NCBI GenBank assembly: GCA_964187785.1
Contig: OZ076409.1
Span: 39,806,001-39,870,000, forward strand
Direction: 5' to 3'
Length of the DNA: 64,000 nt
Source: Amphiscolops sp. MND2022
Taxonomy: Eukaryota
The notes beneath the pieces were generated by a model that was not told the origin of the DNA, did not search any database, and saw only the letters and a program-made list of their open reading frames with translations. Positions 21,004 through 59,201 of the stretch are shown one piece after another; position 1 is the first letter of the stretch, and every line of letters starts with the position of its first letter. The translations under genes and the position numbers were made by a program.

Positions 21004-21011
21004 AAACTTAC

Positions 21012-26250: not shown

Positions 26251-26720
26251 GCAGAATATCTACTAGTCCGAAAAAAAACAAAAGGTTTCACTTACCCAGG
26301 GTTGCCACTCTTTTTCGAAAAAAAATAACGACCTGTCATGTTTTTTGAAAAAACGACCAACAAAACTACAAATAACGTCTTTTTTGGAACTTTATTTTTA
26401 AACTTTAAACTTGCACTTACCCGAAGAATACTCAACATATTTGTTGTATGGCTGGGTCGCTCCGCTCCCTTCGCCAAGTAGCAACATTGAGGCATGGCCA
26501 TATGGCACGTTGCTTCGCTCCTGCATTTAGGGCACTACTAGGAGTATGTGAACATAGCTGACTAGGGGAAATTGAAAAATTCATTTTTTTCATCTTTGAA
26601 CGGACTTCGTTCCGGTCCGCCCGCGTCAGCCAATCAGATTGCAGAGAAAAAAGCGTCCAATAATTATTTTTCGGGTAAGTGAAACCTTTTGTTTTTTTTT
26701 CGGACAAATGAATATTCTGC
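26251..26720. mobile_element. TIR element (gcagaatat..tccgaaaaaaaacaaaaggtttcacttaccc arms) carrying core B
   Basis: ~45-bp inverted arms; core B at ~26436-26563; no clear TSD. Confidence 0.65.
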
Positions 26721-28098
26721 GCCCCCCTTTGTAGGTGCCCCTTTGTGGTAAGCCTCCCTTTGGAGGAACATTAAATCGTTTTTGGAGTTCATTAATGCCT
26801 TTCAGATATTTATAACAATGTAAACATTTCTGGCTAGAGTTACAGACTGACGATCCTCAATGAACGGCTAATTTCACAGAGCCTCTGAGTCTTTGGTTAT
26901 TTTTTTAGACAATGAATTTTTTAAAGACAACAATATCATATGAAGCCGTGTATAATTGAAAGTACCTATATTCTAGCTCGAGATTTTCCCAACATTACTT
27001 TTTGTCATCGTAATCAAAAAGCATGATTGATGCTGTGGAAATGGCAATTTGAAACCATACATTTTGAGTACCAAAGCTATTATTTTCTATTTTTGAACCT
27101 ATTTTACCATCATAATCGAAATCTGGAAGTCAAAACAGCACGTTATCGCATAAAGCTTGAAGCATAACTTGATATTTCCGAAAGTCTTCGAAAATATTTT
27201 TTCGTTAATTAATGAAAAACGCTCAAAGACCCTTTTGTAGTTTTCTGCAAAACTTCTCGCAATGAAAAAAAATATTTAGAAAATTTAATTGTGAATATAA
27301 CTTTTTACAATAAAACAGAAAGAAAACTTAAGACATCATAACGATTCGATATTTTTTTATAAAGAAATGGTGATAATGAAAATATTCAAGATCTCATACC
27401 AATATCGAACCGTTTCCAATAAAAGAAGTAGTGCCAAGAATTATTAAAACCAATGAAAACAACTTCAAGGATTGCTTGATAATTCTCCATTGATTATAAT
27501 CCCAATTCCCTACTGATAAAATGAACGAAACTAACAAGATGTCAATTGAAAAAACCACGCAAAAAATGAATGCAGTTTTTGATTCAATCAATTTTACAGG
27601 CATTTTCAATCGTTTCTGCAATTGATATCTAGTTAGCGAGGACTTCAGTTTGAACATATTTAACTACGGCTATTCTATAATAGTAATATAAGTAACTATA
27701 ACCACGGAGGTATAAATTGAACAGGATGCCGATGAACAGGCAGCGGAGACACGGTTTTGAAAAGTCAGAACAAAAGTTTCCTTGTTCATCAGGTTAGCAA
27801 CTCTTCATGTCCAATAGGGTTTCTTCGATTATTTCTCAACCACAGGTATTCCTCCTTTACAATAAAATATTATGATAATTGAGATGCGAAGATCATTTGC
27901 ATAAATGAAAAAGTACGTCTTGAAATAAAATCTATGGAACAAAGTTATTACATCTCAGCAGGAGTTTTGGGTGGATCAAACGATACGAAAACCCAGAAAA
28001 TATGAAATTGCAGATTTTGTCAACGAAGGGTGAAGTTTGGAATTGAACAAGGTAAATTCTATGGGAGTGAACTAAACCGAATGTAGAAAAAGAACTCT

Positions 28099-31000
28099 TC
28101 AAGAGACAGTAGCAGAGCGACTAGCAAGGGCATGGAGACTTTCCGCACCAGCCCTGACATCCTCTGATATCATTTCAAGGTTGTTTGGAGTTGAGCCTGT
28201 ATTGCAACGACTCGTGCCACAGGTGGTAGGGGATGCTGTGGACGTTGCTACGACGGAAGTGTTGGTTGGTGCTGGTTGCTCACGCAAACGGGGAGACGAA
28301 GCGGAGGATAGCTCAGTGAAGGGCGAAGGCGATTCACTGCTGACGTGTGACGACGATTGAGTTTGTGAAGGAGGGCATGCGTCTGCGCTTTTTGAATTGT
28401 TGTTCTTTGTTGAAGACGAGGCGCTCGGGGGACCGAAATTTTGGAGATTATCTCTGGTTCGAGGTAGAGCTTGAAGAACGGAATGATTGGCCATTGTGCT
28501 GCTGTTACTGCTGTCACCACCACTATTTGGATCCTGAACACTCGGGACACACAACTGGCATATGAAGTCTTCAGTTTCGGCCTGCTTAGCAGTTATGCCA
28601 ACACACTGCAAGTGATACCATTCTTCGCATTTGTCGCAACAAACCCAATTTATACCCTTGCCTCTAGGTTCTCGACAAGCCGATTGGAGAGCACACAACT
28701 CTGTCGATGACGATCTTTTACGTGGTCTTCCTCCAGTGCGTCCTCTAGGTTTATGTCCACTGACAACATTACTACCAGGTGCAGCTGCATGCTCTTCTTC
28801 GGGCTTCAGACTCTTGTCTGATTTTCTCTTCTTGGATGAATACGTTGGAGAATCAGGTTGTTTTTTAATTTGCACACCCTGGGAACTCCTGGGGACGTTG
28901 TGGGAAACTTGAGAATCAGTAGAAGAGCTATTAGTTAATTGCGTTTTCCTGAAACAAAAACCGATGAAGTGTTGAACAAACTAGCATTAAACTAATAAAT
29001 GAAAGATTTAAAAGGAATTTTCGCCAACTATCTTGCATAAAGTTTAATTTCAGGGGTAGTGACTCACTTATTAGGGATTTTTGGACGAGCTTTATGCGCA
29101 TCGGGACCACTTTTTCTTTTTACTGGTCTGGAAGCTTCAGATTTGAAATTCAGAGTCTCAGGTGCCTGAGTTTTGCCAGCGTTGGCTACATCTCTGGGTT
29201 TTGACTCGACTACTTCTTCAACTGCATCCATGTCTTCTGCTTCTTCTTGCTCGTCTGCTGCCAAAGCAGCCTGCAGAATAGTCCACAAGTAGTGAGTTTC
29301 ATCCAAGCCAATCTCAATGAGGTCTCCTTCAAGCAATAAGTCCTCCATTACCTCCAAATCTCTTTCGGATACCATCACAGGCAAGCCCTCAATGTGGATA
29401 GTCTTATCAGCAACTTCTGATTTAACAGAAACAAGGAGCGTAGACTCGTTGTTGTTATCAAAGCTTGCATCTGTGCCAACTTCTGCAGACGGAAAATTGT
29501 CCAAATCAACTTTTACGTCAACTTCTTTCTTGAGCACATGCTCAAAGGTTTCGTCTTCAGAACTGTTGTTTTCGAAATTCTCCGTTTTGGGATTGAGAAC
29601 AGGGTAAATAGTTTCAGGTGGTTTTTTCATTGCCATCCTGGTTAAAGCCGTTTTTAGCTTTTCTTGGGAGGCGAAGAAGTCACGAGCCTTTTTACGCCAT
29701 CGCATTGCACGCTCAAAAAGACATTGCAATGCCTCACCTTCGACCAAACGCAAGGGAATTTCTTCCAAACATGCCAACAGCGAGACAACACTCTCCAGTC
29801 TCGGTCTCCTAGACCGCTTACACATGGGACAAAGATACTTCAAATCTTTGATTGCTTCAGTCAAAGCCGTGACAGAGCTTCGGCCTTGCACTTTGTAAGC
29901 AATTGACTTTGGCAGCGGAACGCAAGTTGTGTGGAACCAATCTCTGCATAAGTCACATTGGAGCATAAAACCAGAATAGGTGCGACGGCAAATGCAATAG
30001 AGTTCTTTGTTGTCGTCGTCGTTAGCAGAACGCCCAATGTTTCTCAGCCTCAATTCTTTCATGTCCCTTTGCTCTTCAATCGAAACGTCTTTGTAGTTTT
30101 TAGCAAAATGAGAGGGTGGCTTCGGTTCTTCAAATGAGTAATCCGCTATACGATAAAGAACGTCTGTTTTCCTCCGAGATTTCGCGGCACCTCCGCGAGA
30201 TCTCCCATTCAGATTGCCACGAGGGGTCAGAACATCGATCAGCGTGATGTCATTATTATTATTTTTCAGGAACAGTTTTTCTGACCTCTCTCTCCAATCT
30301 TGTGCTGCATCTAATAATGCCTGAACAACTCCGTGGTTGCTGAGTTGAACCGGAAGCATTTTGCCTTTAGCCGCCAAGCCTTCCACTACAGAAAGATACG
30401 GAGGAGGATCGCAGTTCAACAACGCATCCACTTTGGCAACCCAGTCTTTTGCTTTGCGAAGCGATTCTTGCACAGCGCTAACAGTAGGTAGATATGTTGG
30501 TAATTCGTTGGCATCGTTTATTATAAGCTCTAATTGTTCAATTGTGTATTTAGGACTCGACTGAAGGCAGTACTGGGCTTTGATTTCCCATTCGAGACTT
30601 TTCTCATGGATATTAATCAATTCTTCCAGCTTCTCAGTCACTTCTGAACACGAATTCGAGAGTGTACATTTATCTATTAACGTTTTGAGGTCTTCAATTT
30701 CTATTTGCTCATCATGCATTTTCTCATCCACTGATTTCAACCAATTGGCGGCCTCTAACATTGCTTTGAGGTCGTTGCAATTGGTTATTTCAACATCAAG
30801 TTCAATAGCCTTTTCGTAGAGCTTCTCTAGTTTATCCACATCGCTCATATCTCTACTGTCCAAAACGGCCGCAATGTCCGCGTGCAATGACTCCACACAA
30901 TCTATGACCTCGATAATTTGCTCTGTTTCAGGTAACTCACATGGAATCGTTTGCACTTGGTCCAGAAAAGCTTGCAACTCTTCCAAGGTCAGCTTAGATT

Positions 31001-33350
31001 GCTGGTGTTGCCCCAGTTCATTGGTAGTACTGTTAACAACACCGCCTGTTCGTACTCTGGTTCGGTGTTTCTTTGCGGCTAGTTGCTGAGCTATCAGTTG
31101 TACCTGCTCAGCATCGGCAACAGCCTGCTTCAATTTTTCCAACAAGTCAGGTTCAGTGATGTCTTCATTTTTGGCAAGGTCAATCAGCTCTTTAAACTCT
31201 GCGACGGTAAGCTTTGAGCCGGGCCAAGCCTCAAGGCCATTAGTTGTCCTCGAGTACCAGTCAGTGTATGTTTCCACTCTCTGTAACATCTTGTCGCGCA
31301 TGTTTTTCATTTCGTCTATGGTGTATCTGTATTGAAGAGTTTTGGAAGAATATGGGCACTCACAGAGTTTACTATGATCATACAAGCAAACCAATTTACC
31401 AGGAGAGCAGTTACATGTAATGGCACTGTAAAAGCAGGTGATATCACATGCATCGCACACCCGTAAGTCATCCGCAATGGCTTCGAATTTGATGAAACAG
31501 GAAGAGTCGATTCCAGCTTCAGACACCTCGGCTCTCACGGCCTCTTCTCTCGTTACCGCACAAGCCAGATCGTCGTGCAAGTTTTGTGCAAAATCGGCAT
31601 CGAATTTTTCACCCGATTCAACGATTTTTGAGATAAGTTCATCATGGCAGAAAACGTTGTAACGTTTCACCGTCCTATAGTGTTGAAGACAATCTCGGCC
31701 CATCGAAATCCAATTCGGCAAACAAAAGTTGACAGCTTCTGCACAGTTGTACCCCTGGTTAAATCCAGCGTGGTATGCTCGAGGCAACGTTATCACAAAC
31801 TCACCGGCACATTGCATCAGTCTGTAAACATTGACCCCATGATTCATCAGTGTTACGGGACTCATCGTTGTCACGAGATGATGCATAAGGTCTGGTTGAT
31901 TCTCAAACAATTCAGGTGCCGAGCTTCTCACAGATTGTTCCAGTTTTTCTGCATCCTTCGAGGGTACACCATACCAAGTCTTTGCTTCACCCCAGTGCAG
32001 ATAATTGATTGAGTAGCTCCAATGGTCTTCCACATGCCAGCAAAAAGCAGAGAAACACATACCGATGTACAGCCAGGGAAGTTTCATTCCACTAATTTTG
32101 GCTTCTATGAATCGCATCAAAGACCTGGATTCTAGAGGCATATTGTTCAAATTCCATCCAGAGTTCGCGTAGTCATTTGAATCAACTTGAACGTTATTGT
32201 CTAACGTTGGAAACCCACTTCCCAGCTCGAAAGTCTGAAGGTCCGCCCCATACATTACCGATACATCTTCTTCTAAAGTCGATACTAAACGCCAAAACTC
32301 CTGCTCTACTTCTGCGTGTGGCACAGTCGAAGGTGCTCGATTGAAATAACTTCTTTTGAAAGAATCAGCATATTCACCGAAGGTTCTAATGTTGTATTCG
32401 GAGGGCGATTGCTCAAACCCAAATGGATCGTTGCTTTTGGATTTCACAACTTTAACCAGACACTTCTGACAATGCCACTCGGCTTTTGGTATTTCTCTTA
32501 TTGGTGGATCCAGACAAAATGTATGGAAACCACAGCTACACATGTTGCAAGTCAAAATGAGCCGATCTTGACTTGCAGTCCCACAAACACTACATGCAGT
32601 TGTTTGCAACTTGGACGGAGCAAATTTTCCTTTCTTGTTTCCGATGTCGTCTGTTGCCAAGCTGGTATCTGCCATCTTAGGACCCGGTCCGTAAAATTGC
32701 AACTTTCTCAGTTCAGGGTTGTTTTGTACATCGCATCTATCGAAGTTGGTATCTGCGATGCGCCTTGAATATCGCCGCGACACATTCCGGGATCTCGATG
32801 CAATTGCAATTTTCTTGGGTTTCGATGAACCTTCACTTGCAGCAGACTCGTTTTCAGCAAGAAATTTGTCGTAAGGTTTAATGATTCTGTCATAGTGGTT
32901 TTTAAGCGATTGTGCTTTGCTGACATCAACTCCAAGAAGAAATGCTATGTGGGGCCACATCTTTTTCTTTGTTACATGTTCGTAACCACCTTCTTCGACT
33001 ACAAACTTTTTGAGAGCTAAGAGGTCAAGGTATTTCTGCTCAATAACTGGATACTTCAACTTCACATTGTTAATTTCCCAAAACTTGTTAAGTTCTGACA
33101 TGAAATTCAACTTGGCTCTCGACTTTGCATCCATTTCACAAATTCTTTGAACTCTAGGTGTAAACTTGAAGTTTTCGGGATCCAAAGCAAAGGGTGGGCA
33201 CCAAGAACTTGGGGGCTTAATTTTTGCAATTCCAGTATTGTAAACAATGGGGAAAATTGACTCCATATACTTGAGGGGATCTTTGAATTCTTCATCAGTT
33301 GGTTCGAAAGTGGGAGCATCAGGAGGCTGGACCCAAACGTCGTCGTTCAT
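28099..33350 (-). CDS. KDM5: Lysine-specific demethylase 5 (JARID1/lid) H3K4 demethylase, ~1710 aa, coding exons 33350-29068 and 28948-28099
   Basis: Domains in order: JmjN (APTFEPTDEEFKDP), ARID, PHD1, JmjC with HVED and AYHAGFN metal ligands, C5HC2 zinc finger, PLU-1, PHD2, and PHD3 (WVCCDKCEEWYHLQC) in exon 2. The intron AA|gtgagt...tttcag|G keeps the frame. Confidence 0.96.
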
Positions 33351-34312
33351 TATGCTCTCTGAAACAATATCTCATTTCTAGTCTTCGAAAAATGTGCAAA
33401 AGACCTTCCTCGAGTTCAAAAGATCACAAACCCCAAGTCTTCGCTATATACGGCGGTTTCAACCATCAACCGTTGATTGTATTCAAAGACCTCATACAGC
33501 GCAGTATACAGAACTAAAAAAATTGACAATGCGCCCGTGGCCCAAAAGAATTGAGCCTCTCATAAACATCGGAATACCTGAACTGAATACAAAGCATGTA
33601 GGGTTCCACGATACAATGTAATGTAAGTATTTAATATTTCCATAGTCTTCTCATTGGTAAAACATCATCTGGCTTAACGCTCAAAACCATCAGTATAGTA
33701 AGTATGCTCGAGAAGCAAAAAATACCGCATAATGAAATTAAGACTACAAATTAAGAATGACAAAAAACAAGGGGGAACCAACAGAATAGAATGTTGAAAA
33801 ATTGCTTCAGTTTGCCAAAGTTGTTGTACTTCCTGAGAACCAGTACATGTTTCAATCATCCAGCTCTCTTGGAGAAATATGACAAAACCGTGCGCGACGG
33901 ACTTTCCAAAGTGTGTAACGTGAACTTCGACGATATTTCGAGTACTCAGCTGGCTCTGCCTGCTGAGATGGGTGTTGGGGTTTTATCCGCATCATTATTA
34001 GCACTTCCCGCCTTTTTGGCCTCAGCTTTTGGTGCAAGTGACTTTCTCACGACGATTTTCTCGGAAACATTCGAAGATGTTTCGTTTACAAAAGCGCTTG
34101 AGAGGGGGTTGACTTTGACGAATGAACAGGAAAGTCCTCTCGATGGAACTCAGAAAAACTGGACACAACCTGTCTACGTCAAAACTGCCCAAGATTTGAC
34201 TTCTAGAATGGATGACAAACGTTCGAAAGATTTTAGCGCTCATCAAGGCAAATTCGGGTCACAATGGCTGGACGTCGTTCCTTGCAAGAACCTAGGCCTG
34301 AAACTTGACGAT

Positions 34313-34661
34313 GGGTGGGCGGAAGTAGGTCGAAGGAACGGGATCGAAAATCAGAGTTAGTCCTCAGGTCGACCTACCAAATTTTTGAATGGGATCGAAA
34401 CAACTCGGATCGAAATTTTTATAACGTAGTCAGATATGTTCACATACCCCTAGTGCTCTGAATGCAGGAGCGAAGCGAAGCGGAGCGACGTGCCATATGG
34501 CCATGCCTCAATGTTGCTACTTGGCGAAGGGAGCGAAGCGACCGAGCCATACAACAAATACGATAAAATTTGACAGCATTCCATTCGATCCCTGCAACTC
34601 GATCAAAAGGTTCAACCTCTTTCCTTTCGACCAGAAAAATTCGACCTACTTACAGCCACCC
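34313..34661. mobile_element. MULE-like mini-element (GGGTGG..CCACCC arms, TCGA motifs) carrying core B
   Basis: 9-bp TSD cttgacgat (34304-34312 and 34662-34670) interrupting the CRE coding frame. Confidence 0.85.
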
Positions 34662-34701
34662 CTTGACGATCAGCAACTTCGAATTTCAATTGGTTTGCGT
34701 C

Positions 34702-35206
34702 TAGGGCACGGTAAAAAGTTCGAACGCATAAGTTCGAATTTTAATTTCGAATGGACTAAGTTCGAATTTTCCAAAAACCGGAACAAGTTCGAATCACTGT
34801 GTTCGAATTTTGAACAAACCGCCGTAAGTATAAAACGTACCTCTGATAGTTCCCCAATTCATCTAGTGCCCCGCGGCCCCTTGGGGCCGCTTATGTTCCC
34901 ATCTTGCTAAGCGAGGTCGAACAGGAGCAAAGACCTAGCGGGAACGGAGATCGCGAAGCGATCGTAGTGGGAGCTGGTCTTTGTGGCGGTGAGGGCGAGC
35001 GTGCATACACCGGATTTGCCCCACATTAGAAAGGAAAAGTAAAAAAAAATTTCTGAGACATTTACGAAAGGTAATATTTTATTCTTGACACACCGGATAT
35101 GCCCGATATGAAAATTCGAACTTGGTGTCTCGAAACTATTCCTATTCGAACTTATTCCACTAGTTCACATTCGAACCTAGTAAATCAAACTTATTGCCCG
35201 AAGCCT
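34702..35206. mobile_element. hAT-like mini-element (tagggcacgg arms, ttcgaa motifs) carrying core A
   Basis: TSD (t)tgcgtct of 7-8 bp within the CRE GLRLG codons; core A at 34863-35025. Confidence 0.75.
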
Positions 35207-36102
35207 TGCGTCTCGGTGCCAACATCCACGTTGCGCATACGTGCCACTGTGTCTAAAGAGTTGAACGGGACGGTTTACACGGTCTTTCTTGCACCAATAG
35301 TGCTGGTCGCTTCTCACGTCATGCTATTCTCAATTATCTCATAAAGCAGACGTTGGGATCTCTCGACTTGCCTTCAATGCTCGAACCGCGTGGACAGTAC
35401 CGAACTGATGGCAAACACCCAGACGGTGTTACCATGATTCCTTGGGAAATGGGTAAACAGCTGGTGTGGGATGTCACCGTTGTGGATACTCTTGCACCCA
35501 GTCACCTGAAACAAGGTTCTTTATGCAACCCGGGAACCACCGCCACCGAGGCTGAAGCGCGTCAAATTGAGAACTATCGCGAATTATTAGACAGTGGATA
35601 CGTTTTTCAGCCGATGGCCTTGGAAGTGAAGGGTTCTGTAGGCGAGAGCAGTAAAATTTTCATCACGCGTCTCTGTAAGATGCTCTGTCGTTCGCACGAC
35701 GATCAACGAGCTGGCAGCTTTTTGAAGCAACGGATTTCAGTGTCTCTTCAGATCGGCAATGCGGCCTGTGTTCTAGGAACTGTGAGCGACAGAGATGCGT
35801 TCGAAGAAGTTTATTACATATAGCCTAATTTTTTTGACCTTTATATCAGCAGCTTTAAAAAAATTTCTACCGGTCGACTGCATAGTGGCTGGTTTGAGTA
35901 GTTTGTTGATATTTTTTTGTTACTGGTCTACTGGTATAGTGGCTGGTGTGGGGTTCCCTACTTTCGTTGCAGACCACGGGTGTGTGTCTTCTCCCCCCAA
36001 CCTAATGACACACATATCACTTGATTGATGACAAAAATCCATGACATCTGATAGAGGAAAATGAAAGTAAAAAAATTTACTAAAATTTACTAAAAAATTA
36101 CT

Positions 36103-36385
36103 AAAATCAAAATTTCGATCCCAGTTGTTTCGATCCCGTTCAAAAATTTGGTATCAACCTGAGGACTAACTATGATTTTCGATCCCGTTCCTTTGACCTA
36201 ATTCCGCCTACCTTCTCGGCTTGCCTTCAATGCGCGAACCGCGTGGACTGTACCGAACTGATGGCAAGCCGAGAAGGTAGGCGGAATTAGGTCAAAGGAA
36301 CGGGATCGAAAATCATAGTTAGTCCTCAGGTTGATACCAAATTTTTGAACGGGATCGAAACAACTGGGATCGAAATTTTGATTTT
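36103..36385. repeat. Perfect 123-bp inverted repeat with a 37-nt spacer
   Basis: 36103-36225 is the reverse complement of 36263-36385. Confidence 0.9.
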
Positions 36386-36782
36386 TGGGAAACAAATCGA
36401 ATTGCCGCAGATAGAATTTTTTAGAAAAGTATAAAACGTGTCTCGGATATGTCCCCATTTCCTCTAGTGCCCCGGGTCCCCTTGGGACGGCTTATGTTCC
36501 CATCTTGCTAAGCGAGGTCGAAGAGGAGCAAAGACCTAGCGGGAACGGAGATCGCGAAGCGATCGTAGTGGGAGCTGGTCTTTGCGACGGTGAGGGCGAG
36601 CGTGCATACACAGCCTATGCCCCACATTATGATAGTTAATCGACTTGAGGCAAACAAAGAACGTTTTTGACCCGAAGGCTTTGATCAAGTTCGATCGCAT
36701 TCCATTCGATCCCTGCAATTTGATCAGTAGGTTCGACCTCTGTCCTTTCGACCGGAAAAATTCGACCTAATTACAGCCGCCC
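36275..36782. mobile_element. GGGTGG-family mini-element carrying core A
   Basis: Arms match those of 34313-34661; TSD aagccgaga/aaggcgaga; core A at 36464-36626. Confidence 0.8.
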
Positions 36783-39245: not shown

Positions 39246-39675
39246 GCTTGGTAATAATTACCCCGAGTAGCGACCTCTGACGTTTATTTCGTCCAAGTGA
39301 ATTTTGCAGAAAACAACTTAGAGAAGAGAGCATTATGCAACACAAGGCAACATTTGACGGGGTTGAAACATAACCAACATTTGACGGTTGAAACATAACC
39401 AATTGCAGGAATACCACATTTGGGTGTGTTTCAATCTCCCCAAAAAAACAATCACAATGGTGAAGCAATCCGTTTATGAAAAAAAACCTTGAATTAATAA
39501 AATGAAATATAAAAGGAATTATCTCACCGGGTTGTGATGGTTCTTTCAGCCCAGGTGCAGCGACAAACCAACAAAACAGCGTCAAAGATATGGTCCAGTT
39601 GTCTCAAATTCGAATGATTGCCATCTCTGAAGCTATTCAACAAGCCCATCACAACAATTTGGCTAACAACTGCGG

Positions 39676-40980
39676 TTAAAGAGTTGAACGAGACGGTTTA
39701 CACGTTCTCTTGCATCAAGAGAACTGTTCGCTTCTCACGTCATGCTTTTCTGAATTCACTCATAAAGCAGACGTTGGGATTTCTCGCCTTGCCTTCAATG
39801 CTCGACCCGCGTGAAATCCACCGAACTGATGGCAGACGCCCAGGGGATGTTACAATCAATCCTTGGGAAATGGGCAAACAGCTGGCGTTGGATGACAAAG
39901 TTTTGGATGCCCTCGCAATCTTCATCAAGCTGAAACAAGGCTCCCCAGGCAACCCCAGAACAACAGCCACCGAGGCTGAAGCGCAAAAAATGTGAGACGT
40001 AACGCGAATTAATAGTCAATGGATACATTTTTCAACCGGTGCCCATGAAAGTGCACGGTTCTTCAGGCGAGAGCAGTGAAATTGAGCGTCTCTGTGAAAT
40101 GCTGTGATTGGCACGACAATCAACGAGCTGGCAGCTTTTTGAAGCAACGGAACTCAATGTCTCTTCAGCTTGACAAGGCGGCGTGTGTTCTAGTAACTTT
40201 GAACGACACAGATGCGTTTGAGGAAATTTATTACATTTGTGTTTTTTTGTACACCAATATATCATTACAGCTTTTTCTGAAACATGTTTCTACCAGTTGA
40301 CTGGGAAAGTAGCTGGTATGAGTAGTTTGTTGATTGGTTTTTGCTGTTAAGGACTTACTGGAATAGTGACTATTTAAGGCTTTCCTTTTTTCGATGCAAA
40401 CCACGGATGTGTGTCTTCTCTCTCCAACATGACGCACATGTCACTAATTAGGTCCAGCTTGTGGAAATCCAGTTTGTAGATTTCTTCACACAAGATCTTG
40501 AGGGCTGCATTGCCTGAGATCTACCGCCTAAGATCTAAAGGAATAACAAAACTGAAAACGCGGGGTTCATCCGGTGTATGCACGCTCGCCCTCACTGTCA
40601 CAAAGAGCAGCTACCACTACTATCGCCTCACGATCTCCGCTCCCTCAGCAAAATTGGAACATATGCGGCCCCCAAGTGCCGCGGGGCACTAGAGGAGTTG
40701 GGGACATTTCCGAGGCACGTTTCATACTTTACGTCAATTCTGCATTATTGGTTGGTTTCATTGTTTTTCTTCTTGAATTGATGATTTCTACAAACTGGTA
40801 TTCTACAGACTAGACCTTATTCAAAATATTACCATGGTCCTGTTTTGTAGAAACAGATTCCACAAACTGGCCTCACTTTTTTACAAACTGGACTCTACAA
40901 TTTGGTTTTTAACAAACTGGTTCATACCTATGGCACTGGACTGATGATGAAGATCCATGATATCTGATGGTGGAAATAAC
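39676..40980 (+). mobile_element. 3' fragment of the CRE-clade element (REL domain plus 3' UTR)
   Basis: Homologous to 35255-36060; interrupted by a core-A element. Confidence 0.8.
40446..40928. mobile_element. Mini-element with ctacaaactgg-motif arms carrying a diverged core A (reverse orientation)
   Basis: Degenerate 9-bp TSD catgtcact/tatggcact in the CRE 3' UTR; core at ~40570-40692. Confidence 0.65.
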
Positions 40981-42429: not shown

Positions 42430-45400
42430 AAAAAAATGGAAATCGGAGCAGTTTAATAGTTCCGACAAGTCCCTCATCAAAAGAACGTTGCGGGAAAGAA
42501 TTTTCAGCCGTGAGTCATTTGATGACGCAAGTAGTGCAATCGCTGAACGCGAGGCAAACAGAGGAACCTCGAAGCTTCTCATAGCCGAATGGATGTTGAA
42601 ATAGTCAAAAACAATCATCGTTGAGACTGGATGACAAGACTTCCAATTAGAAACCCTCCTCGTAGATGCCAAACAGGTTTTGGACGAAGGTATTCTTTTG
42701 GCCATCAGTGAGCATTTGTTGGTGCAAGCAGAGGAGATGTTGGAATACACAATGTCGGAAGCACTAAAAGAGCATAGAATTTTAGCAACCGCATCAAGCA
42801 AGCAAACGAAGAGTAAGAGTGTGCAGTTTGAACGTCTCGAAGAGAGTGCAGATGTTACCAAAGTACTGCAGTACGTACAGCAAGGAAAATTATTCCGAGT
42901 GACATTTTTCCATGCCGGTAATCTACTCCTTGAAGAAGGAAACAAATGATTTGAAATGGAAAAATGTCATGCATTTGTGAATGAGCAACAATTGACACTG
43001 CAAGAAGGATTGATTGAAAAGTCCATTCATTAAATTTATGCTACGGTGAATATATCAACAGCTATGCAATGAAATGCATTGTCAAAAGTGAAAAACAAGT
43101 CATGAAAGCACGTTTTGGAAGGAAAGCTGATTTCGACTTCAAGGCAAGCCTTGTTGAAGTAGCTATCTTGAGAGATAGCAATGTATGAAACTATTGGAGC
43201 GGTAAAGGAACCTCTAGGCTGATCGCAGTGGCGCACGCTAACGGCACTGATAAATTGGATTTGTGCATTGGCCACATCAGACACTCGACGGAAAGAATTT
43301 GCAAGATTGAACCTAAGCCAAACCTGGTACATGGAATGATGAAAAGAGCTCAAATGAACAAACATTGAATACAAGATGAAAATTTTAGGCTAAGAGCAAA
43401 GAGTAGCAAAGGGACTGAGTTGAAAACACAAAGCCACAACAAGTTGCACTGGGCTTGAGGACTCTGAAAAGAGAAGGAAGGACTTCAGTTACCGTAATAA
43501 TGATACTTTTTTCTGTTTCTTGTTTGTTTATTGTTTTGAGGGACGCTTTCAAGTGTCACGCATCCAAAAAAGAATTATGGAAGGATTAGAGAACGAACTC
43601 GCGTTGACATTTCTTCTCAGTGGTCAGTCAACTTCGATCAGAATATCGGTAGCACAGCAAAAATTGAGGAACTGGTTGAAGACTTTTTCGACTTACCTGG
43701 AAATTGACTCTTTGGATGTTGACGTAAATATAAAGCTGTGTTAATTGAGCTGCAAAATTTTTGTAAAGTACTTTTTAAAGGTTTAAAAGAAGAGCAAGTG
43801 ATTGAACTCAATGAAGGTCGGACGTTGATGTTGAAGTTTCTGATAATTGTCAAAACTATGACTTGAAGTGAGAAAACTGTTTTTGTTTGAATCTTTGGTT
43901 GTCTTAAGTCAATATGTGGGAAAAAAATCTATTGTGAGCGATCTAGACTTCAAACTGAAAAAAATTTTGCACTAGATCACCGACAGTTGATGTGCAATCC
44001 ACAACAATGTGCTAAGTCAAACAGATTTTGAATTCGAGATCAGTGATTGTCAGTAATGATCCTGAAGGGGACAAGACGTTTCGGCGACAGACGTGTCATT
44101 GGACGTTTCGGCGACAAACTGTCGCCGAAACGTCTCTAAACAGGGTGGGAGGAAAACTGTCCCCGAAATGTTTCTTCAAAGGATGGGCCGAAAAAATATA
44201 TGAAGATTACGAGACTTGGCTTTTTTTTTATATATTTTATCACGAGACTTGGCTTTATATACATCATATTGAAGATATCATTTAAAAAGTACAAAACGTG
44301 CCTCGGATAGGTCCATATATACTCTGCAACTGCTCTTTGGATCTCGTGGCATGAATTAACACTGGCGGTGGGTGTTTGGATCGAATGAATTTGCGCGAAT
44401 GTGCAATCTGTCACTGAGATCGAAGTAAAATGGTGAAAGAAAATGAGATCGAATCAATGTTCTCAAATACCTAGCATTTTTAAAACAACAATGTTTTTCG
44501 ACGTCGGATATGCCCCCATTTCCTCTAGTGCCCCGCGGCCCCTTGGGGCCGCTTATGTTCCCATCTTGCTAAGCGATGTCAAACAGGAGCAAAGACCTAG
44601 CGGGAACGGAGATCGCGAAGCGATCGTAGTGGGAGCTGGTCTTTGCAACGGTGAGGGCGAACGTGCATACACAACATATGCCCCACATTTTAGGATTTTT
44701 GCTTTCAGAACGAACGTTTTTGGTTTTTTAGAGGACGTTTCGGCGACACCCTTGTCGCCGAAACCTCCGCCGCCATATTGTCGCCGAAACGTCTCTCACC
44801 GAAACGTCCAGATTCCATCCTGAAGATTTGGAAGCCTTCACTTCATCTCCTTTTCTGCTAGGGCGCGCCAGTCCGGCAATTCCATTCAATCCTGACGCTC
44901 AGTGATATACGGATCTTCGAATAGTTGTCACAGTATCACTAGGAATGAGACATCTAAATGGATCATAGAAGGAGTTTGAAAGTTGGAATTCAAGGATGTG
45001 GTTTGGATAGTTGATGAGAATGTGGCAGGAGCACACTACAAGATGGGTGGAGTGTTGGAAGTCTATCATAGAAGCAAAGAGCGTGTAAGATCAGTGCTGG
45101 TGAAAACGGAAGATGGAAAACTCAAAAGACCAGTATAATACTGGCACTCTCGTTTTACGAATTAATTCTTCGGGAGAAAGACAGGGCCGGCAATGTTGGA
45201 GCCAGTCAATCGCAAGTTCAGAAACTTGAAGTCTAACGTGACTGATGAAACCTATAACTCAAACACCTTGAAAGGTTGTTAGGATTTAGGTTGCAAAATG
45301 AAAGTTTGGCAGAAATAGTGTTGGCGGGACAAAACCCCACCCCTCTTTTTGAGAATCATTCGTACACCTACCCTGAAATTTGTTAAGCATATTCAAGAGA

Positions 45401-47250: not shown

Positions 47251-47282
47251 ATGGCCTTTGAAACTGGATCGAAGAAGGGACA

Positions 47283-48187: not shown

Positions 48188-48749
48188 CAGAAATTTCTAA
48201 GAGTGAATGACTTTAGGAATTCTTAATGATGCTTAAAAGGATTGGACCCTTTCCGCTGGCACCCTTTCTGTTTGAAGATAACAATGCATATTTTGGTGCA
48301 TTTGTTTTAGGAGTGGTGAGAGGTTCCACATTCGGGTTTTGTTTTTGATTAGCCGCCAAGGCTGAAACTCTGCAAAGTTTAACGACTTTTGAGAATCTTT
48401 TCTAATTGATGATCTGAAGTACAAATGAGAAAACCAAAGGTTGTTTTGGATGCCGTCTTTCAGGGATTCTCTCATTTGTAGGACTATAATGCACACGATC
48501 CAATTCTTGAACTCAGTTCAGTGAAATTTGAGGATCTCGAAGAATCGATTATTTGCGGTACAACTGAGACAGCAAAACTTTTCTGATTGTCGTCTTTCAG
48601 GAACTTTTCATTTGTGGGCTTATATTGAGTAAAAGTCGATGATTCAAACTGGATTAGCGAACAAAGTACTCAACGCTCGTTTTAATTTGGTGAACCACTT
48701 CAGAAAAATTGTGTTATCCGTTCATGGAAAGACATCAAGAACTTCAAGA

Positions 48750-51250
48750 GCTTGGCTTATTTGAAACAAAATGGTTAACTCCCATCTGATCTAAACAAAG
48801 TCTTGGACGTGACCCTCATGAAAAATCAAAAGTTCTAAAGGACACTTTCTTCAGTGGGAGGCACCTGGAAGAAGAATTTTTTGACAATACTTTCTGTGAC
48901 TCTATGGACAAAAATCTGCGAATGATAAATGACCTGGAAAAAAAACGAAACCTATGAAAACGAATGGTATAATCGTGAAATTACTCTGGACGAGCTTGAT
49001 GGAGTCCTTGGTAATTTACGGAACGCATCCAGCTCTTTGGATGACGACAATCTTCACCCAAAAATGATAGTATTTTCCGGTCTATATTTCCGCACGGTTC
49101 GTATCACTTTGTTTAACTGGTGTCTTGTCACATCTGAATGGCCGTGGCCTGAAGCCCGTGGTCTCTTCATGGAGAAACCCTCGAAACCGGACTACATGGA
49201 CCCAACTGTCTACAGACCTCTGTCAATTACTAGCCGTATTGGAAAAATTTTTGAAAGTATTCTAAACAACTGTCTAACGGATTTCTTGATGAAAAATCAA
49301 CTGATCGACCACGAACAAGAAGGTTTGCTCGCGAACAGAAACACCACGAGATCATTATTCTGAATAAAAATTGAACACGAAAATCTGAAAAGGCGGAAAA
49401 AAGTTGCGACGTGATAAACTTAAGTTTGCAAAAAGCTTTCGACAGTGAGTGGCAAAACTGACTCCTAGCAAAGCTATGGACTGCTGGTATTCGGGCTGTT
49501 TCTTCCGTATTATTGCGACATACCTTAAGAGTGGACTTCAATGAACAAAAATTGATGGCTGGCACAGCCAAGTTTTCACCCCAAAACAAGGTCTTCCTAA
49601 AGGGAGTGTGATTTCACCAACACTAATCAGTTTTTACATAGCCGACATGCTCAAAACAAGCTATGGAGTGAAGTTCAAGTATGCTGACGACTCTCAGTTC
49701 CTTGTCACGGCAGCTAACGAGGAAAGTAGTTCAACACATCATTCAAAGGACCCTAACAACTGTACAGCAATGGTACCGCCCGTGGCGCCTGGAAAAGACC
49801 GATGTTGTACTCATTAACGGTATAGCGCCATGCGTTCAAACCTTCTACCTCGGCAATCAGAAATGTAAAGTTAAGAATAACACCAAAATTCTTGGAATAT
49901 TGTTGATGAAAAAATGACTTTCAGACAACATACCCAATCTGGTATAGGTAGGGGCAAAAACAAATGGAAAGAGCATCGACTGTCTTGCACGAAAAAATGG
50001 AGTTTATCTAGGCGAACTTTAGTTAGTTTGTACAAACCACTAATCCTCCCTCAAGTTCTTTATTGCGCTCCTGTATGGACACTGATTAACTACAACAGAC
50101 TTAACAGTTTCCAAGGCTTCATATTAAGCGACATTATGGACACAACTCAGAACCCGCACTCCAAAGCTGCGGAAGTTTTTCTCGCTACTACCAATCGACA
50201 TTATATGAAAATATACCCGTCAAGTTCATGACTAAAGCACTCACATCAACAGACAAACTGCAACGATTGATACTGGAGAACCAGCAACGCCTCAACTTTG
50301 TAACAATCCACTCTAACTGTTTGAAGCAGTTTTACAACAATAGGATTCTCGAACTGACTGACCTTCTGAATTACACAGGCACAACCCGTCGATTTGATAT
50401 CTTTAGACGATGGAATGACCGAAGAGGAACAAAATGGACTTCGATACTCACCTTAACATTCTTGTCCCTAGAAGAAAAATGGAGTCAATGTTAGGGTGGG
50501 GTATTTTGGATCGGATTTTTATGTGAGCGAAAAGCGAGATCGAAAACGTATCGAAAGGTTTGAGATCGAATTGTTACGTTTTTGCTATTATTTTGCTCCT
50601 GCAAAGCGTTCAAATTATTTGAGGTACTTTTCTGCACCTAATATGGAGTCATATACGGTGTATGCACGCTCGCCCTCACCGTTGCAAAGACCAGCTCCCA
50701 CTACGATCGCGTCGCGATCTCCGTTCCCGCTAGGTCTTTGCTCCTGTTCGACCTCGCTTAGCAAGATGGGAACATAAGCGGCCCCAAGGTGCCGCGGGGC
50801 ACTAGAGGAAATGGGGGCATATCCGACGCCGAAAAACATTGTTGTTTGAGAACGCTAGGTATTTGAAAACATTGAGTCGATCTCATTTTCTTTCACCATT
50901 TTACTTCGATCTCAGTGACAGATTGCATAATCGCGCAAACTCATTCGATCCAAACACCCACCGCCAGTGTTAATTCATGCCACGAGATCCAAAGAGCAGT
51001 TGCAGATAGAATTGGAACTTTTACTTGATACCTGTCCTACAATAAACAACTTTGCCTACAACAGGAGCCTAACAGCCAGTCCGCTCTGCTCTTGCGGAAG
51101 AAATGAAGTGACTGTGATATACTTTCTTTTTTACTGTCAGCTTTATGAAAACAGAGAATTGTCTACGGAAAAACTCCACATTCACGACTGGGAAGACTAG
51201 TCGACACTTGGTAATTGATATACTTCTAGTGGGCAATTTGCACTCGAAGG
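48750..51250 (+). mobile_element. Degenerate APE-type LINE ORF2 (RT and C-terminal CCHC region)
   Basis: YRPLSITSRIGKIFESIL, KAFD, KYADD, CSCG..E...FLFYC; related to the LINE at 53.9-58.5 kb. Confidence 0.8.
50494..50963. mobile_element. Mini-element with gggtggggtattttggatcg arms carrying core A (reverse orientation), inserted in the LINE
   Basis: Degenerate TSD tcaatgtta/ccagtgtta; core at ~50657-50805. Confidence 0.75.
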
Positions 51251-51889
51251 AAACGATATTGCTACTAACGAGACATCAACCTTGGAGGTTGACCCATCCA
51301 ACGAACAACAAACTGAGCTAGCAAACAAGTGAACCGATATATTTATCTTTTCTAGTCTATTGATGTATATATCTAGTCTTCCACTGTAAAAGGATCTCAA
51401 TCAGTTGACTAGTCGTACAATTTTGATTGTTTTTGCTTTTATGTGCCGAAATAGAGTTATTGATTATGTCGTGCCAATTATTTCTTTACTTCTGCTAAAA
51501 CTTCCACGAATCAGAAGGTTTTGTAAAATTTCAAGGCTGCTTTTGGCACTGATATTGAAATTCAGTCCAAGCAAAGAATAACAGTAACGTCTGAAAATTT
51601 TTCGTTGTCAAAAGGGGATAGAAGCAAAGGTACGGTCCAGTCAGATGGCATCGGTTAAAAATACCAACAAGACGGGAACCTCTAAAGCCGGTGCCATATC
51701 CAATGCTCAAAAAGCTCAAACTTTTTGAAATTGTAAAAGGGGTTTTTTGGGTTTTTGAAAATCCATTTTGTTGCGGTGTGTAACGTTTCAAACTTCGGAT
51801 ATAGCGTGCTGGCCCACATGGGAGCGCTTTTTGAACCTCCGCCTCCTCTTTCGTAAAACGGAATATAATTCGGAGATGACATCAAAAAT

Positions 51890-52620
51890 TCGGAACTAAT
51901 TGCGCTTTTCTCAAACAGGAATTAGAACTAATTTGTTTCAGGAATTGGAACTAAAAACAGGGATTAGAACTAATTCGTTACGGGAGTTGGATTTAAAAAA
52001 GTGGGAATAAGACCTTGAATGTGGAATGAGGCCCAAGATGAGAACGAAATTTTATCTAAAGTAATAATATCTAAAGTTTTTCGAAGTATCAAACCTCTGA
52101 TTTTTCCCCATTACTAGTGTCCCGCTGGTTCTTGGGCAGGGGTTGGCAATCAATTATAGGGTATTCAATTAATTGCAATTATTGGTAGCAATTAATTGAT
52201 CGGTATCGTTTTTCAATATCAATTTTTGATTGACGTGTGGCAATTATTGCAAATGTTTAAATATACGTTTAAAAAATGTTTAAAAAATTGGAAGACAATT
52301 TGTCGAAAATACTTTTACGAGAAAAGTACGGATAGTGATGATTGGATGTGTGGCTGTGGAAAATAGTTGAAGAAGAGGCACGAGACTGGTTGGACTAACC
52401 TCTATGCCCATCCAAGCGTTCAACATGATGTTCCTTTGAGGCCGCTTATGTTCTCATCTTGCTAAGCGAATTCGAACAGGAGCAAAGACCTAGCGGGAAC
52501 GGAGATCGTGAAGCGATCGTAGTTGGAGCTGATCTTTGCGACGGTGAGGGCAACGTGCATACACCGAATATGCCACACAGAAGAAAGTACTGATCTTTTT
52601 GTGAGACATTTACGAAAGTT
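51890..52620. mobile_element. Element with a gaactaa-motif arm carrying core A split by a caggggttggc hAT-like fragment
   Basis: ctagtgtcccgc at 52114; the rest of the core at ~52440-52578. Confidence 0.55.
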
Positions 52621-52753
52621 AAACTTATTTTCTTGAATGAAATGATTCGAGATCCGACTATTTTATAAAATCAATGGGAGGAAAAATATAATGATTGTAT
52701 CAATTTTATGTTGTTCAATTGTGTTACCTTATATTCGTACTACTTTCATGTTC

Positions 52754-53095
52754 GGGTCAGGGACATTTCGTCACAAGCCATTTGGGCGACAATATGGCGT
52801 CGGTCACATGGGCGACAAAAGTGTCGACCAAATGGGTTGATCAAACTGATCAATTAACTAATATATAAAGAGGTTAGCATATTTGTTGTATGACTCGGTC
52901 GCTTCGATCCCTTCCCCAAGTAGCAACATTGAGGCATTGCCATATGGCACGTCGCTCCGCTTCGCTTCGCACCTGCATCTAGGGTACTAGGGGTATGTGA
53001 ACATATTTGACGGGACATTCGGCCGACATTACTGTCGCCCAAATGGGCATTCATTTTTGTCGCCCAAATGGCTGGTGACGAAATGCCCCTGCCCC
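52754..53095. mobile_element. MULE-like mini-element (gggtcagggacatttcgtcac arms) carrying core B
   Basis: Perfect 9-bp TSD ttcatgttc; core B at ~52878-53005. Confidence 0.85.
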
Positions 53096-53695
53096 TTCAT
53101 GTTCCACGTTTCCAATTTGCGTTTTGTACCATGTTTTTATCGGATTCCGGACGTTTCGGCAAAAGACGCTTCGGCAAAAACATGGCGTCGGACGTTTCGG
53201 CAAAAAAATATGCCGAAACGTCTCAGGCTAAAAGCATTTGCCGAGACGTTTCGTATGATATGTGGGGCATATCCGGTGTATGCACGCTCTCCCTCACCGT
53301 CGCAAAGACCTGCTCCCACTATGATCGCTTCGCGATCTCCGTTCCCGCTAGTTTTTGCTCCTGTTCGACCTCGCTTAGCAAGATGGGAATATAAGCGGCC
53401 CCAAGGGGATGCGGGGCACTAGAGGAAATGGGGACATATCCGAGGCACCTTTTATGCTTCGCATCATTCCTACATTATTGGTCTCATCGTTTTTCTTGGG
53501 TGGGCGGAAATAGGTCGAAGGAACGGATCGAAAATCAGAGTTAGTCCTTAGGTCGACATACCAAATTTTTGAATGGGATCGAAACAACTCGGATCGAAAT
53601 TTTTATAACGTAGTCAGAAATGTTCACATACCCCTAGTGCCCTGAATGCAGGAGCGAAGCGAAGCGGAGCGACGTGCCATATGGCCATGCCTCAA

Positions 53696-53895
53696 NNNNN
53701 NNNNNNNNNNNNNNNNNNNNNNNNNNNNNNNNNNNNNNNNNNNNNNNNNNNNNNNNNNNNNNNNNNNNNNNNNNNNNNNNNNNNNNNNNNNNNNNNNNNN
53801 NNNNNNNNNNNNNNNNNNNNNNNNNNNNNNNNNNNNNNNNNNNNNNNNNNNNNNNNNNNNNNNNNNNNNNNNNNNNNNNNNNNNNNNNNNNNNNN
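53696..53895. other. Assembly gap (200 N)
   Basis: Run of N. Confidence 1.
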
Positions 53896-56800
53896 ATGAA
53901 TAGCGGGAGCTGTGAGTTTAACATGGATTCGGCGAGGTTTCCAAAGTTGAATTTACTCCGGATTTCTTCGTATCTGGGACATTCTAATATGAAGTGGTGA
54001 ACAGATTCTACGTTTGATCCACATGGACAGCGTGGGGATTCGGTTAACCAAACTTTGTATAGAAAGCCGTTGAGAGGGCAGTGTCCCGTTAGGAGTCGGA
54101 AAGTGTTGACTTCATTTTCTCTAGAGTGTGTCGTGAAGAGGGAGCGCGGGGGGATGTGGAAAATTCTTCTGAGGTGCGAGTCTTGGTACAGCCAGTAATT
54201 TACCCACAGATGGTGTTCATATCTATTGATATCGGATTTTCTGTATTGGAACGTATGTACGTCAATCTCGTCCAGTTCGAGGCGGTGGCTTGATCGCAGA
54301 TTGTTTTTGAAGGCTAGGAAGCGTTTGAGTATAGTGACATCATTGTTAATTTTAGGGTTGGCTGTGTTGGGATCGAAGATGGTATGTTTCAGATTATCTC
54401 CTTTGACGTAGAGTTTGGCCAAGAATTTTGCGGTTAACAGTTCGATTTGGATTTTAATGGTTTTGATGTCGGTGAGGAGCTCAAGGTCACAATTTGCCGG
54501 GTTGTAGAAGGATCCAGTTGCTGAGTATAACCATGCTCTTTGCAGAGTGATCAGAGGGTCGAGATTGCAATCGGACAGGGCTGAGACTCCGTATAGGATT
54601 TTTGGTAGTGTGAATAATTTGTAGATTTTGAGGATTGATCTTGCGGTGAGTCCGGAGTATGGGCTGCAGAACTCTTTTATCCTGTTGAGATCAGCCCATC
54701 CTTTGCCCGCTGCGGATGTCACTTGTTTCTTGGTGTTGCCTACAATAGTTCCCACTATGATGATATCGTCTTTTAGTACCTTAGTTCCTTTGACTAGGAA
54801 AGTTTCTTGTTCCTTCTTTTCGGAGGGAATGAAGTTAACTGGGAGGAATGCTGTTTTGGATGTGTTAATATTGATCTGGTTCTGATGACACCAGGCAAAG
54901 AGTTTTTCGAGAGTACTTGATGAGTAGCTCATGACTTCGGTTGTATTTTGTGCGGTTAGTAAGATTGAGGTGTCATCTGCGTATTTGTAGACTGAGGCTC
55001 GAGGTTCATTGTCGAGAAGGTCTGTAATGAAGATTATGAAAAACAAAGGCGAGAGGATGCTGCCTTGAGGTAGTCCTATTTGACAGGGTAATTCTTCGGA
55101 GATGAAGTCGTCAAGGATGATCTGTATCTTCCGGGTGCTGAGGAGATTATTGATAATGCCAAGAAGATCTCCCTTTATGCCGGCGAGATGAAGTTTAGTT
55201 ATAAGAATGTTAGTATTTACGCTGTCGAAAGCTTTTTCAAGGTCTATGCTTATCAACATTCCCTTGAGGTTGCTAGTCGTTACCTCTCTCAAGTCAGTGA
55301 AAATTTTGTATAGGAGTCTGGAGGTGCCACGTCCTTTTCTGAAACCTTCCTGATTGTCATCCAAGTAATTATTTATCGAGATTATCGATAGGACTTTCTG
55401 GCTAAGGATCGATTCAAGGATTTTCCCTACAAGGGTGATGGGGCGGTAGCTCTTTGGTTCAAGGTAGTCTTTCTTTCCGCTCTTAGGAATGAATATCACT
55501 TTGCCTTTTTTCCAGACCCAGTGTTGTTTTTGGATGCAGCAGTTGAACAGATGAGTCAGAATAAGTGAGAGACTGGGACCAGAATAGCGAAGCATTTTTG
55601 GGTGGAAACCATCAATATCAAGAGATTTGTTGTTGCTTTTCACTTTCCGTAGTGCTTCTTCAACGTCTGAATGCGAGATTAAACATGCTCCCATCGCGTG
55701 GGAGTTTTCTGTCAGTGCACGGCTGGCCGATAGATAGTTCTCTATATTGCTTTGGGTGGAAAAGTTCTCTGATGCTAGGTGTTCGCCTGTAAAGAAGGAC
55801 TTTCGCAGAAGGTCACTTTTCTCTTGGGGGTTAAAAAGAATCTCGTTTTGATCGTTTTTGAGGGGGCCCATTTTCGATTTGTCGCGGTCGAGAGGTGTAG
55901 TTTTGTATCTTTTCCAGAAGTTAGTTGTGTCTGCTTTGTTAAGATGATCGAGGTAGCGTTGCAGCCAAGAGTTATGAGCTGAAATTATCTCCTCTTTGAA
56001 AGCATCTTTGCTTTTCAAAAGTTCCTCTAAGTTTTCTTGATTATTGCGTTTTCTGTAGGCAATTTTATTTCGTCGAAGAGTTAGAGAGAATTCTGATAGC
56101 TTGCTGTTCCAAAAAGGCTTGGAGTAATTTGACAGTAATTTAACTGGAATAGTAGTGTCGACTGTTCGTATAAGAGCTGATTTTGTGATATCCCAGATTG
56201 TCTCAGGGTCGTCACTTTCGAGGATTCCGTCGAGTTCGGCGGTCAGGTTATCTTCTAGAGCAGTTTTCCAGACGGTCCAGTCGGCGTTGTCGAAGTCTTT
56301 CTTAATTTGTCTAACAGTTTGGCATTTAGAGAAGAGTCTCCAAGACCAGATGATTGGATAATGCCCCCTGCGGGGTGCGCCTGAGAAAAGTTCAGCTCTG
56401 GCCGTTGACCGATACAAATGTTGGCCCATTCGGGTGACTAATGTTCAGATCGTGGTCCTGGAGCAAATTGAAGAGCATGAGTCCGTGTTTGTTCGTCGAA
56501 TGATCAGACCAGGCAGGGTGTCTTGCATTGAAGTCTCCCAGGATTAATACACCGTCTAAAGAGTTACTGCTGACAAATTCCCGACATTTAGACAGGATAC
56601 TATCAAGCATTTTCAATTGTTCTGGATTATCTGGGGGAATGTAAATGCTTGCTACTAGTAATCGAGTATTCTTGTCGCTCGCTAGAACGAATACTGCGTC
56701 GATCTTGTCATTTCAAGGGACGTAACTTCAGCTGAGCTAAGGTTGTCGTGTATTGAGAGGCTCACTCCCCGCCCGACTTTGGATGCGAAGGTTGAGTAGG

Positions 56801-58516: not shown

Positions 58517-58750
58517 TTCGATCAAAAGGTTCGACCTCTGTCCTTTCTACCAGAAAAGTTCGACCCATTTACAGCCACCCGTTTTTCTTCAATTCCAGAA
58601 TTCTACAAACTGGTATTCTACAAGCTGGACCTAACCAGTTTGTAGAAAACCAAAAACAAAACCAAGATAATACGGGACGTTTCGGCATGAAAAATTTGCC
58701 GAAACGTCTCGAGTTTTTTTTTTGCCGAAACGTCCTGTTCCCTTTTTATC

Positions 58751-59201
58751 GGCTTCCGGTAATAAAGTCGAATTTTGACTCGTCGAATGAATAACGTCGA
58801 ATGAATAGCGTAGAATTTAGTCAAACAGAAAATTTTAGGTTGAAAAAATATTTGAGGTTCTTTTCCCCACCTAGTATGGGGTCATATACGGTGTATGCAC
58901 GCTCGCCCTCACCGTCGCAAAGGCCAGCTTCCACTACGATCGCTTCGCGATCTCCGTTCCCGCTGGGTCTTTGGTCCTGTTCGTTCTCGCTTAGCAAGAT
59001 GGGGACATAAGCGGCCCCAACGGGCCGCGGGGCACTAGAGGAAATGGGGCATATCCGACGGCCAAAACATTGTTTGACCATTTTACATTTGCAATGACAT
59101 CGACGCAATTACTTCGACATAAGCCCGTCGACGATGGTACTTCGACGCTAGTTAAACGGTTCAAATTCGACTTTAGTCGTTCGACTTTATTGCTGGACAC
59201 T
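58751..59201. mobile_element. Mini-element with ggcttccggtaataaagtcgaa arms carrying core A (reverse orientation)
   Basis: 22-bp imperfect TIR flanked by (c/g)tttttatc; core at ~58889-59038. Confidence 0.75.

Follow-up and report, generated by a model that had tools for sequence, protein, structure and literature searches.

Two conserved interiors lie between the foldback arms of many Mutator-like MITE families in Amphiscolops sp., and may have been captured as filler

In the coral Acropora, a set of piggyBac-derived MITE (miniature inverted-repeat transposable element) families, known as CMITEs, has an interior that is more conserved than the terminal inverted repeats (TIRs) and whose origin is unknown (PMC2872659). 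A comparable arrangement is found in Amphiscolops sp. MND2022 (genome size 1.07 Gb), in a stretch of 64,000 base pairs (bp) at positions 39806001-39870000 of contig OZ076409.1 (C1), referred to below as the window. Two short conserved sequences, core A and core B, occupy the centre of MITEs whose arms are the foldback ends of many families of Mutator-like elements (MULEs). The pattern is real and, against the view of an earlier note on this DNA that it lacked precedent, the CMITEs already provide one; the MULE version is larger and directly testable.

As in the CMITEs, families with different TIRs share an interior that is more conserved between them than the TIRs are; it is missing from the autonomous partner, its origin is unknown, and the authors of the coral study suggested that it aids transposition (PMC2872659). 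Tandem arrays are also found in both, here as whole core-B MITEs at 403-bp spacing (L047-L049, C4:26175122-26176060). The CMITEs, however, have piggyBac ends with TTAA, a length of about 100 bp, six families with about 1,600 copies, a single partner and TIRs of 13-14 bp, whereas here there are MULE foldback arms, two cores with common ends, on the order of 10,000 copies, 14 or more TIR groupings and 7-9 partners, and a test of constraint at the level of lineages has been added. Membership in the CMITEs, judged by piggyBac ends and TTAA, was rejected, the ends being GG...CC and the target site duplication (TSD) varying between 8 and 9 bp.

Among MULE/Foldback elements of the Phantom type, the Aedes aegypti element Muta1 and the Meloidogyne element Tm1 have the same 8-9-bp TSD and long TIRs composed of short tandem repeats (PMC5225508, PMC3169594). 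Tm1 is also alike in its FLYWCH-MULE transposase, and derivatives of both carry foreign interiors, Tm1-HH keeping a conserved captured hairpin (PMC3169594). In the passages cited, however, Muta1 interiors are heterogeneous within the family and Tm1-HH is confined to one family, and neither shows one interior in many families. Pack-MULE and Pack-TYPE elements and abortive gap repair acquire filler through neighbouring or nested insertions, template switching and microhomology junctions (PMC8903248, PMC3814204, PMC3310237), as seems to happen here, although the cargo in this genome is the centre of another MITE, recurs, and contains no recognised gene fragment, unlike that described for Pack-MULEs. 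HINE/DINE-1, Replitrons and Cryptons (PMC4067079, PMC10288648, PMC3212892) resemble the cores in being short and non-coding, with hairpins or short terminal direct repeats, but they are described as free-standing with defined ends, whereas the cores were found only with MULE arms. In the open literature (subscription papers, Dfam and Repbase were outside the scope) there was no report of this pattern in MULEs, and no other paper using the name CMITE.

A profile search located eight copies of core A and four of core B in the window, at the places given by the earlier note. Core-A copies are 91-97% identical to the copy at 34863, except a decayed one at 40.6 kb, and core-B copies are 86-98% identical. 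Seven of the twelve lie inside elements with an 8- or 9-bp TSD (five exact, two with one mismatch), and the remaining five have decayed or been split, or are truncated by a nested element or by the N gap at 53696-53895. Exact words of 31 letters (core A) and 30 letters (core B) occur 2,405 and 4,877 times in the genome, both lower bounds, and their reversed controls not once. The profile search, applied also to 20 arbitrary 10-kb regions, returned six matches confined to two of them, and therefore the core copies are on the order of 10,000 genome-wide, and clustered. To sample copies blindly with respect to arms, the first 30 matches of each exact word on C1 were taken. Of these 60, arm or inner-flank sequence could be recognised on both sides in 48, on a single side in 11 and on neither in one, and this last shows weak inverted arms by eye, so that no clear solo core was seen among them (0-1 of 60 without arms), in agreement with the claim that no core stands free.

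Both cores extend further left than first described, and they share both ends (about 45 nucleotides (nt) on the left and 25 nt on the right) around an unshared middle: the left similarity score of 43 was reached by 0 of 1000 shuffles and the right score of 26 by 2 of 1000, against 183 of 1000 for the middle. These common ends may be older inherited flanks. The description of the cores as hairpins holds for A, which folds somewhat better than shuffled sequences (z about -2), and fails for B, which folds no better (z +0.4 to +3.2). No Rfam family matched the cores at gathering score, ARAGORN found 0 tRNA genes, and as to features of short interspersed nuclear elements, neither a head derived from RNA polymerase III transcripts (ARAGORN, Rfam) nor a core-level TSD was found. 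Among public sequencing runs, three matched with small shares and no RNA run was listed; the contigs from these were short pieces of low depth.

The arms themselves all have GG...CC ends and arrays of short repeats. Among 59 distinct insertions, the TSD is 8 bp in 30 and 9 bp in 29 (with a finder restricted to these two lengths), which does not sustain a division into superfamilies by termini and TSD lengths; the leading T of the proposed five-letter terminus belongs to the TSD and varies between copies. Arm families were counted by end clustering and by eye, without automatic motif labels. Automatic TIR and TSD calls placed 11 core-A copies in 8 end clusters and 10 core-B copies in 6, and by eye the 60 copies fall into about 12 (A) and about 15 (B) arm types. 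A MULE search listed 150 matches among 305 candidates, and 20 loci with long frames were taken for comparison. The arms matched autonomous MULE ends in seven pairings by BLAST at 78-100% (L171, L176, L179, L182 and L184 with core B; L188 and L189 with core A), and two further pairings were made by eye (L172, L185). All nine partner proteins scanned contain a MULE domain, FLYWCH scores above the cut-off in six of the nine, and several families have uninterrupted transposase reading frames. Every identified partner is thus a MULE, which does not support an origin of the arms in several superfamilies, and the assignment of the arms to many MULE families of the Phantom/Muta1 type is well supported. 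Arm families lacking a partner are filed as putative MULE derivatives by structure alone; in the window these include the families at 34313, 34703, 50494 and 58755, which have no match among the 20 loci out of the 150 listed.

The transposases that go with these arms are far apart, the six core-B partners being 18-34% identical and the three core-A partners 20-42%. Where distal flanks are unrelated, core identity nevertheless averages 92.7% (374 pairs) and 93.6% (770 pairs), which argues that the cores have moved between families. Descent of the core in common with the arms is excluded on these comparisons, and transfer across families, as the shuttling among unrelated arms in the earlier note implied, is well supported. 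At the 20 autonomous loci, cores occur only in nested or adjacent MITEs and never as a component of the autonomous element. The same arm family bears A in some copies and B in others (34313 versus 36275 in the window, and the L189 family), and orientation is not fixed, the left end of the core facing the 5' TIR in six of eight pairings. The two outcomes named beforehand as telling against shuttling, a majority of solo cores or homologous arms forming one diverged family, were not what was found.

The elements of the window are as follows, separate core rows coming from the profile search.

26235..26757, minus strand: MULE-type MITE carrying core B; TSD of 8 bp; arms akin to the L182 autonomous family
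26435..26564, minus strand: core B
34313..34661, plus strand: MITE with core B, 9-bp TSD; L031-L060 family; autonomous partner absent among the 20 MULE loci
34427..34562, plus strand: core B
34703..35205, plus strand: MITE with core A, 8-bp TSD; L001-L030 family; autonomous partner absent among the 20 MULE loci
34837..35028, plus strand: core A
36103..36385, no strand: fold-back duplication of a left arm and about 54 bp of host DNA, 93.7% self-inverted
36275..36782, plus strand: MITE with arms of the 34313 family, core A replacing B; 9-bp TSD with one mismatch
36438..36630, plus strand: core A
40446..40821, minus strand: decayed MITE with inverted arms, TSD not recovered
40557..40718, minus strand: core A, decayed, with an internal deletion
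44068..44816, plus strand: composite MITE; TSD of 9 bp; arms akin to the L188 autonomous family; within it lie a stub of the left end of one core A and, from the 50494 family, a nested left arm with core A
44501..44691, plus strand: core A
50494..50964, minus strand: MITE carrying core A; TSD of 8 bp, one mismatch
50639..50829, minus strand: core A
52095..52579, plus strand: split core A (profile search), TSD not recovered; left stub near 52095-52135, the rest at 52431-52579, about 300 bp of other DNA between
52754..53096, minus strand: MITE with core B, 8-bp TSD
52877..53012, minus strand: core B
53142..53497, minus strand: MITE with core A (53258-53448), one arm kept, the other cut at the start of the next element
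53498..53695, plus strand: left arm with core B (53611-53695), truncated at the assembly gap 53696-53895
58755..59197, minus strand: MITE with core A (58873-59060), short inverted arms, TSD not recovered

The first of these elements starts at 26235 and not, as had been given, at 26251. At three of the 20 MULE loci (L179:1874-2409, L182:1790-2225 and L184:4133-4617) a core-B MITE with its own TSD lies within the autonomous partner of its family or some 20 bp away from it. Fold-back rearrangements containing an inverted duplicate of one arm or core, such as that at 36103-36385, were also seen in L002, L003, L031, L057 and L131, which suggests frequent aberrant transposition or repair.

Each MITE consists of an autonomous end, filler and another autonomous end, the filler being the core with 0 to about 60 nt of flank, common to other arm families to varying depth. 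Flank sharing fades over 10-50 nt outward from the core, giving it graded edges, and changes fixed in lineages are concentrated in its ends; neither supports the idea of a separate element with defined ends of its own. In the L176 family, L223 and L238 retain a piece of another family's arm, and the left and right flanks of the L182 MITE match different donors. Of the 59 insertions, 12 are inside members of the system, against a background cover of 0.8%; two of the three within autonomous elements come from loci chosen as MULE. The nested insertions include four in a core and five in an arm or inner flank and, as the core represents 34% of the length, it was rejected as an insertion hot spot. 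Nesting and template switching are described as routes by which TIR elements gain filler (PMC8903248, PMC3814204), and the observations fit capture by repair or nesting, which may explain the distribution better than self-mobility.

The sequence of events would then be as follows. With arms matching the ends of transposase-coding MULEs and a TSD of 8-9 bp, each MITE would be cut and pasted by the transposase of its own family, and the core, present between the arms of families too divergent for its shared descent, was transferred. It is likely that a new family takes the core as filler from an existing core-bearing MITE, through template switching in gap repair or through nesting followed by deletion, and that the donor flanks are thereby carried along at variable lengths. 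Selection among elements then probably keeps the interior of the core, core-bearing derivatives out-replicating plain ones. Because the core serves transposases just 18-42% identical, it would most likely act via a host DNA-binding or chromatin factor, or via DNA shape, rather than through transposase-specific sites.

The case for such selection comes from substitutions fixed in lineages. In core B, 12 arm families have fixed one substitution (and one 10-nt loss) over the 98 interior nt but 11 over the left-hand 35 nt (p=0.003); in core A, 15 subfamilies have fixed four over the 132 interior nt but 39 over the 68 nt that make up ends and flanks (p=6e-8). Private mutations, by contrast, strike the interior throughout (126 in 98 nt in B, 163 in 132 nt in A), and therefore the constraint is on replicating lineages and not on resident copies. 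CpG transitions are without clear excess (93/712 in A, 24/506 in B). Fixed changes are too few for selection to be claimed at the level of structure, and the contrast between paired and unpaired positions (p=0.04, 0.005) is confounded with position. A whole-flank identity test and a first shared-variant test (four of six groups significant) were inflated by gapped alignment and breakpoints, and the argument rests instead on the lineage-fixed counts; one inverted-repeat control for the core-A set was left unused, because its control DNA contained a related element.

Copies selected by their arms add a second line of evidence. These sets (L176, L189, L173, L177) are subsets of the best matches per search, read 630 bp inward from the end, and exclude the query element and some hits at known or likely autonomous copies. 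Core B is found in 19 of 20 copies of the L176 family and a core in 19 of 20 of the L189 family, the latter with at least two junction types, and both arm-selected consensuses agree with the remaining families. The near-invariant interior and this dominance in two families fit the earlier proposal that the core boosts amplification; the boost itself is something we infer from them. Selection for amplification would be the simplest reading, with a recent sweep or conversion as its main rival. MULEs with extra TIRs have been reported to amplify better (PMC3310237).

We lean towards the reading that the core is captured filler of MULE foldback MITEs, kept for raising amplification. A stronger form is possible, though put forward tentatively: that the core is a portable, transposase-independent enhancer of amplification, selfish and with no mobility of its own, that capturing families out-replicate their plain derivatives, probably by recruiting a host factor, and that A and B compete for one pool of MULE ends. 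Several points weigh against these proposals. The core was found in none of 13 copies of the L173 family (long copies of which could hide a deeper one) and none of seven of the L177 family, both with plain derivatives of their own; it is dispensable, yet dominant once acquired. Counts of flank changes are inflated by indels and non-homologous replacements, some flank positions of A being non-homologous, and interior variation is lowered because many loci were picked for their similarity to the core, a bias from which only the two arm-selected sets are exempt. Two fixed changes break a predicted pair in A, and fixed changes are too few for a structure test. Several arm families, including the two commonest, have no autonomous partner among the 20 MULE loci. 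Finally, no source sequence for the core was found, a single-copy source being indistinguishable among thousands of copies.

The core could instead be inert, with the commonest MITEs being copied and nested in most often, so that the rich get richer, and a sweep or conversion keeping the centre uniform. The strong nesting bias (12/59) without preference for the core, the recombination through the core implied by the different donors of the L182 flanks, and the existence of families without a core are all in line with this, but even divergence would then be expected, whereas the density of fixed changes is about 20-30 times higher in ends and flanks than in the interior; moreover, conversion from dead copies a few percent diverged should import changes and not restore one sequence. 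Such neutral capture is considered unlikely. Quite improbable is that the core is a non-autonomous mobile element, related to Helitrons, Helentrons or Replitrons, or to Cryptons, with fuzzy ends and targeting the centres of MULE derivatives, in the manner of the colonising module of the earlier note. A and B are alike at both ends and unlike in the middle, as sister non-autonomous elements would be, the reverse reading of core A places a CTRR tetranucleotide a few bases after a GC-rich hairpin, short imperfect direct repeats, which do not mark the limits of homology, are visible by eye at the ends of each core, the genome has at least 150 RepHel matches, and Replitron-1 insertions have fuzzy ends (PMC10288648). 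However, both edges are graded and no clear solo copy exists among the 60, the lineage-fixed changes sit in the ends, which such an element needs most, about 25 conserved nt continue beyond the CTRR, and an 11-15-bp subterminal inverted repeat pair was not seen by eye in the alignments. A Helitron origin was judged unlikely in that the delimited ends of RepHel elements are unlike the cores (10 of about 150 loci, 20 regions, some ends lying outside them), and a third core family or a long parent with a common left end was rejected in that 99 of 99 variant left ends genome-wide read as A or B (eight were fetched). In addition, 51 truncation points have no common long continuation, and L234, the sole complete core-less L176 copy, does not represent a clean empty site. 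An enzyme gene with core-type ends was not encountered, no family search for tyrosine recombinase or Rep having been made.

That the core is of use to the host, as a regulatory sequence or a small RNA gene, and is kept by host-level selection is very improbable: the interior is invariant at the sequence level and Tm1-HH derivatives of MULEs hold a captured histone hairpin (PMC3169594), but individual copies gather the private interior mutations counted above, and neither an Rfam match at gathering score nor a tRNA was found. It is scarcely tenable that all these elements are one old MITE family with diverged arms. The architecture and GG...CC ends are common to all arms and inner flanks are homologous in subsets, yet arm types match different transposase elements at up to 100% while the proteins are 18-42% identical, family consensuses of the core are nearly the same despite the divergence of the transposases, and one arm family can bear either core, as at 34313 and 36275 and in the L189 family.

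Several other features were noted in the window and the genome. A 5.6-kb head-to-tail duplication (141-5749 and 5756-11372, 99.7% identity) is either a recent segmental duplication or an assembly artefact. On the minus strand, 11030-15258 has DEAD helicase and Sec63 domains in two long frames, which by domain order we take to be HFM1/MER3-like or Brr2-like; 28099-33371 encodes the KDM5-type histone demethylase domains JmjN, ARID, JmjC, PLU-1 and PHD, in one uninterrupted frame of 1,435 amino acids and a separate PHD frame; and a reverse transcriptase frame at 53896-56444 adjoins the assembly gap. Repeated fragments at 33791-38064 and 39669-40445, which host many of these MITEs, have no Pfam match; by their motifs they presumably resemble a CRE-type element without long terminal repeats, to which Pfam lends no support. 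Another dispersed repeat family (500-26000, e.g. 20564-21539, with a 1-kb copy self-inverted at 70%) gave no profile match to core A or B. Elsewhere, Helitron-type frames of about 2,370 amino acids cluster at 73.4-76.5 Mb of C1 (L104, L106, L107, L110), and two RepHel groups share a motif of roughly 50 nt, near the 5' end in one and near the 3' end in the other.

Two long-standing questions are why MITEs are more numerous than their autonomous parents and whether what lies inside them matters, and the coral CMITE paper raised the same pattern in 2010, leaving its origin and function open. The present genome holds, side by side, natural MITEs with core A, with core B or with none, together with open transposase frames, and a published yeast assay exists for a related transposase. 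The elements also carry a warning for annotation, as many families would be lumped together if elements were clustered on the likeness of their interiors. If the core does boost amplification across enzymes that are only 18-42% identical, it would act as a generic enhancer in cis, of value for transposon tools, and would exemplify selection on a module that parasites share.

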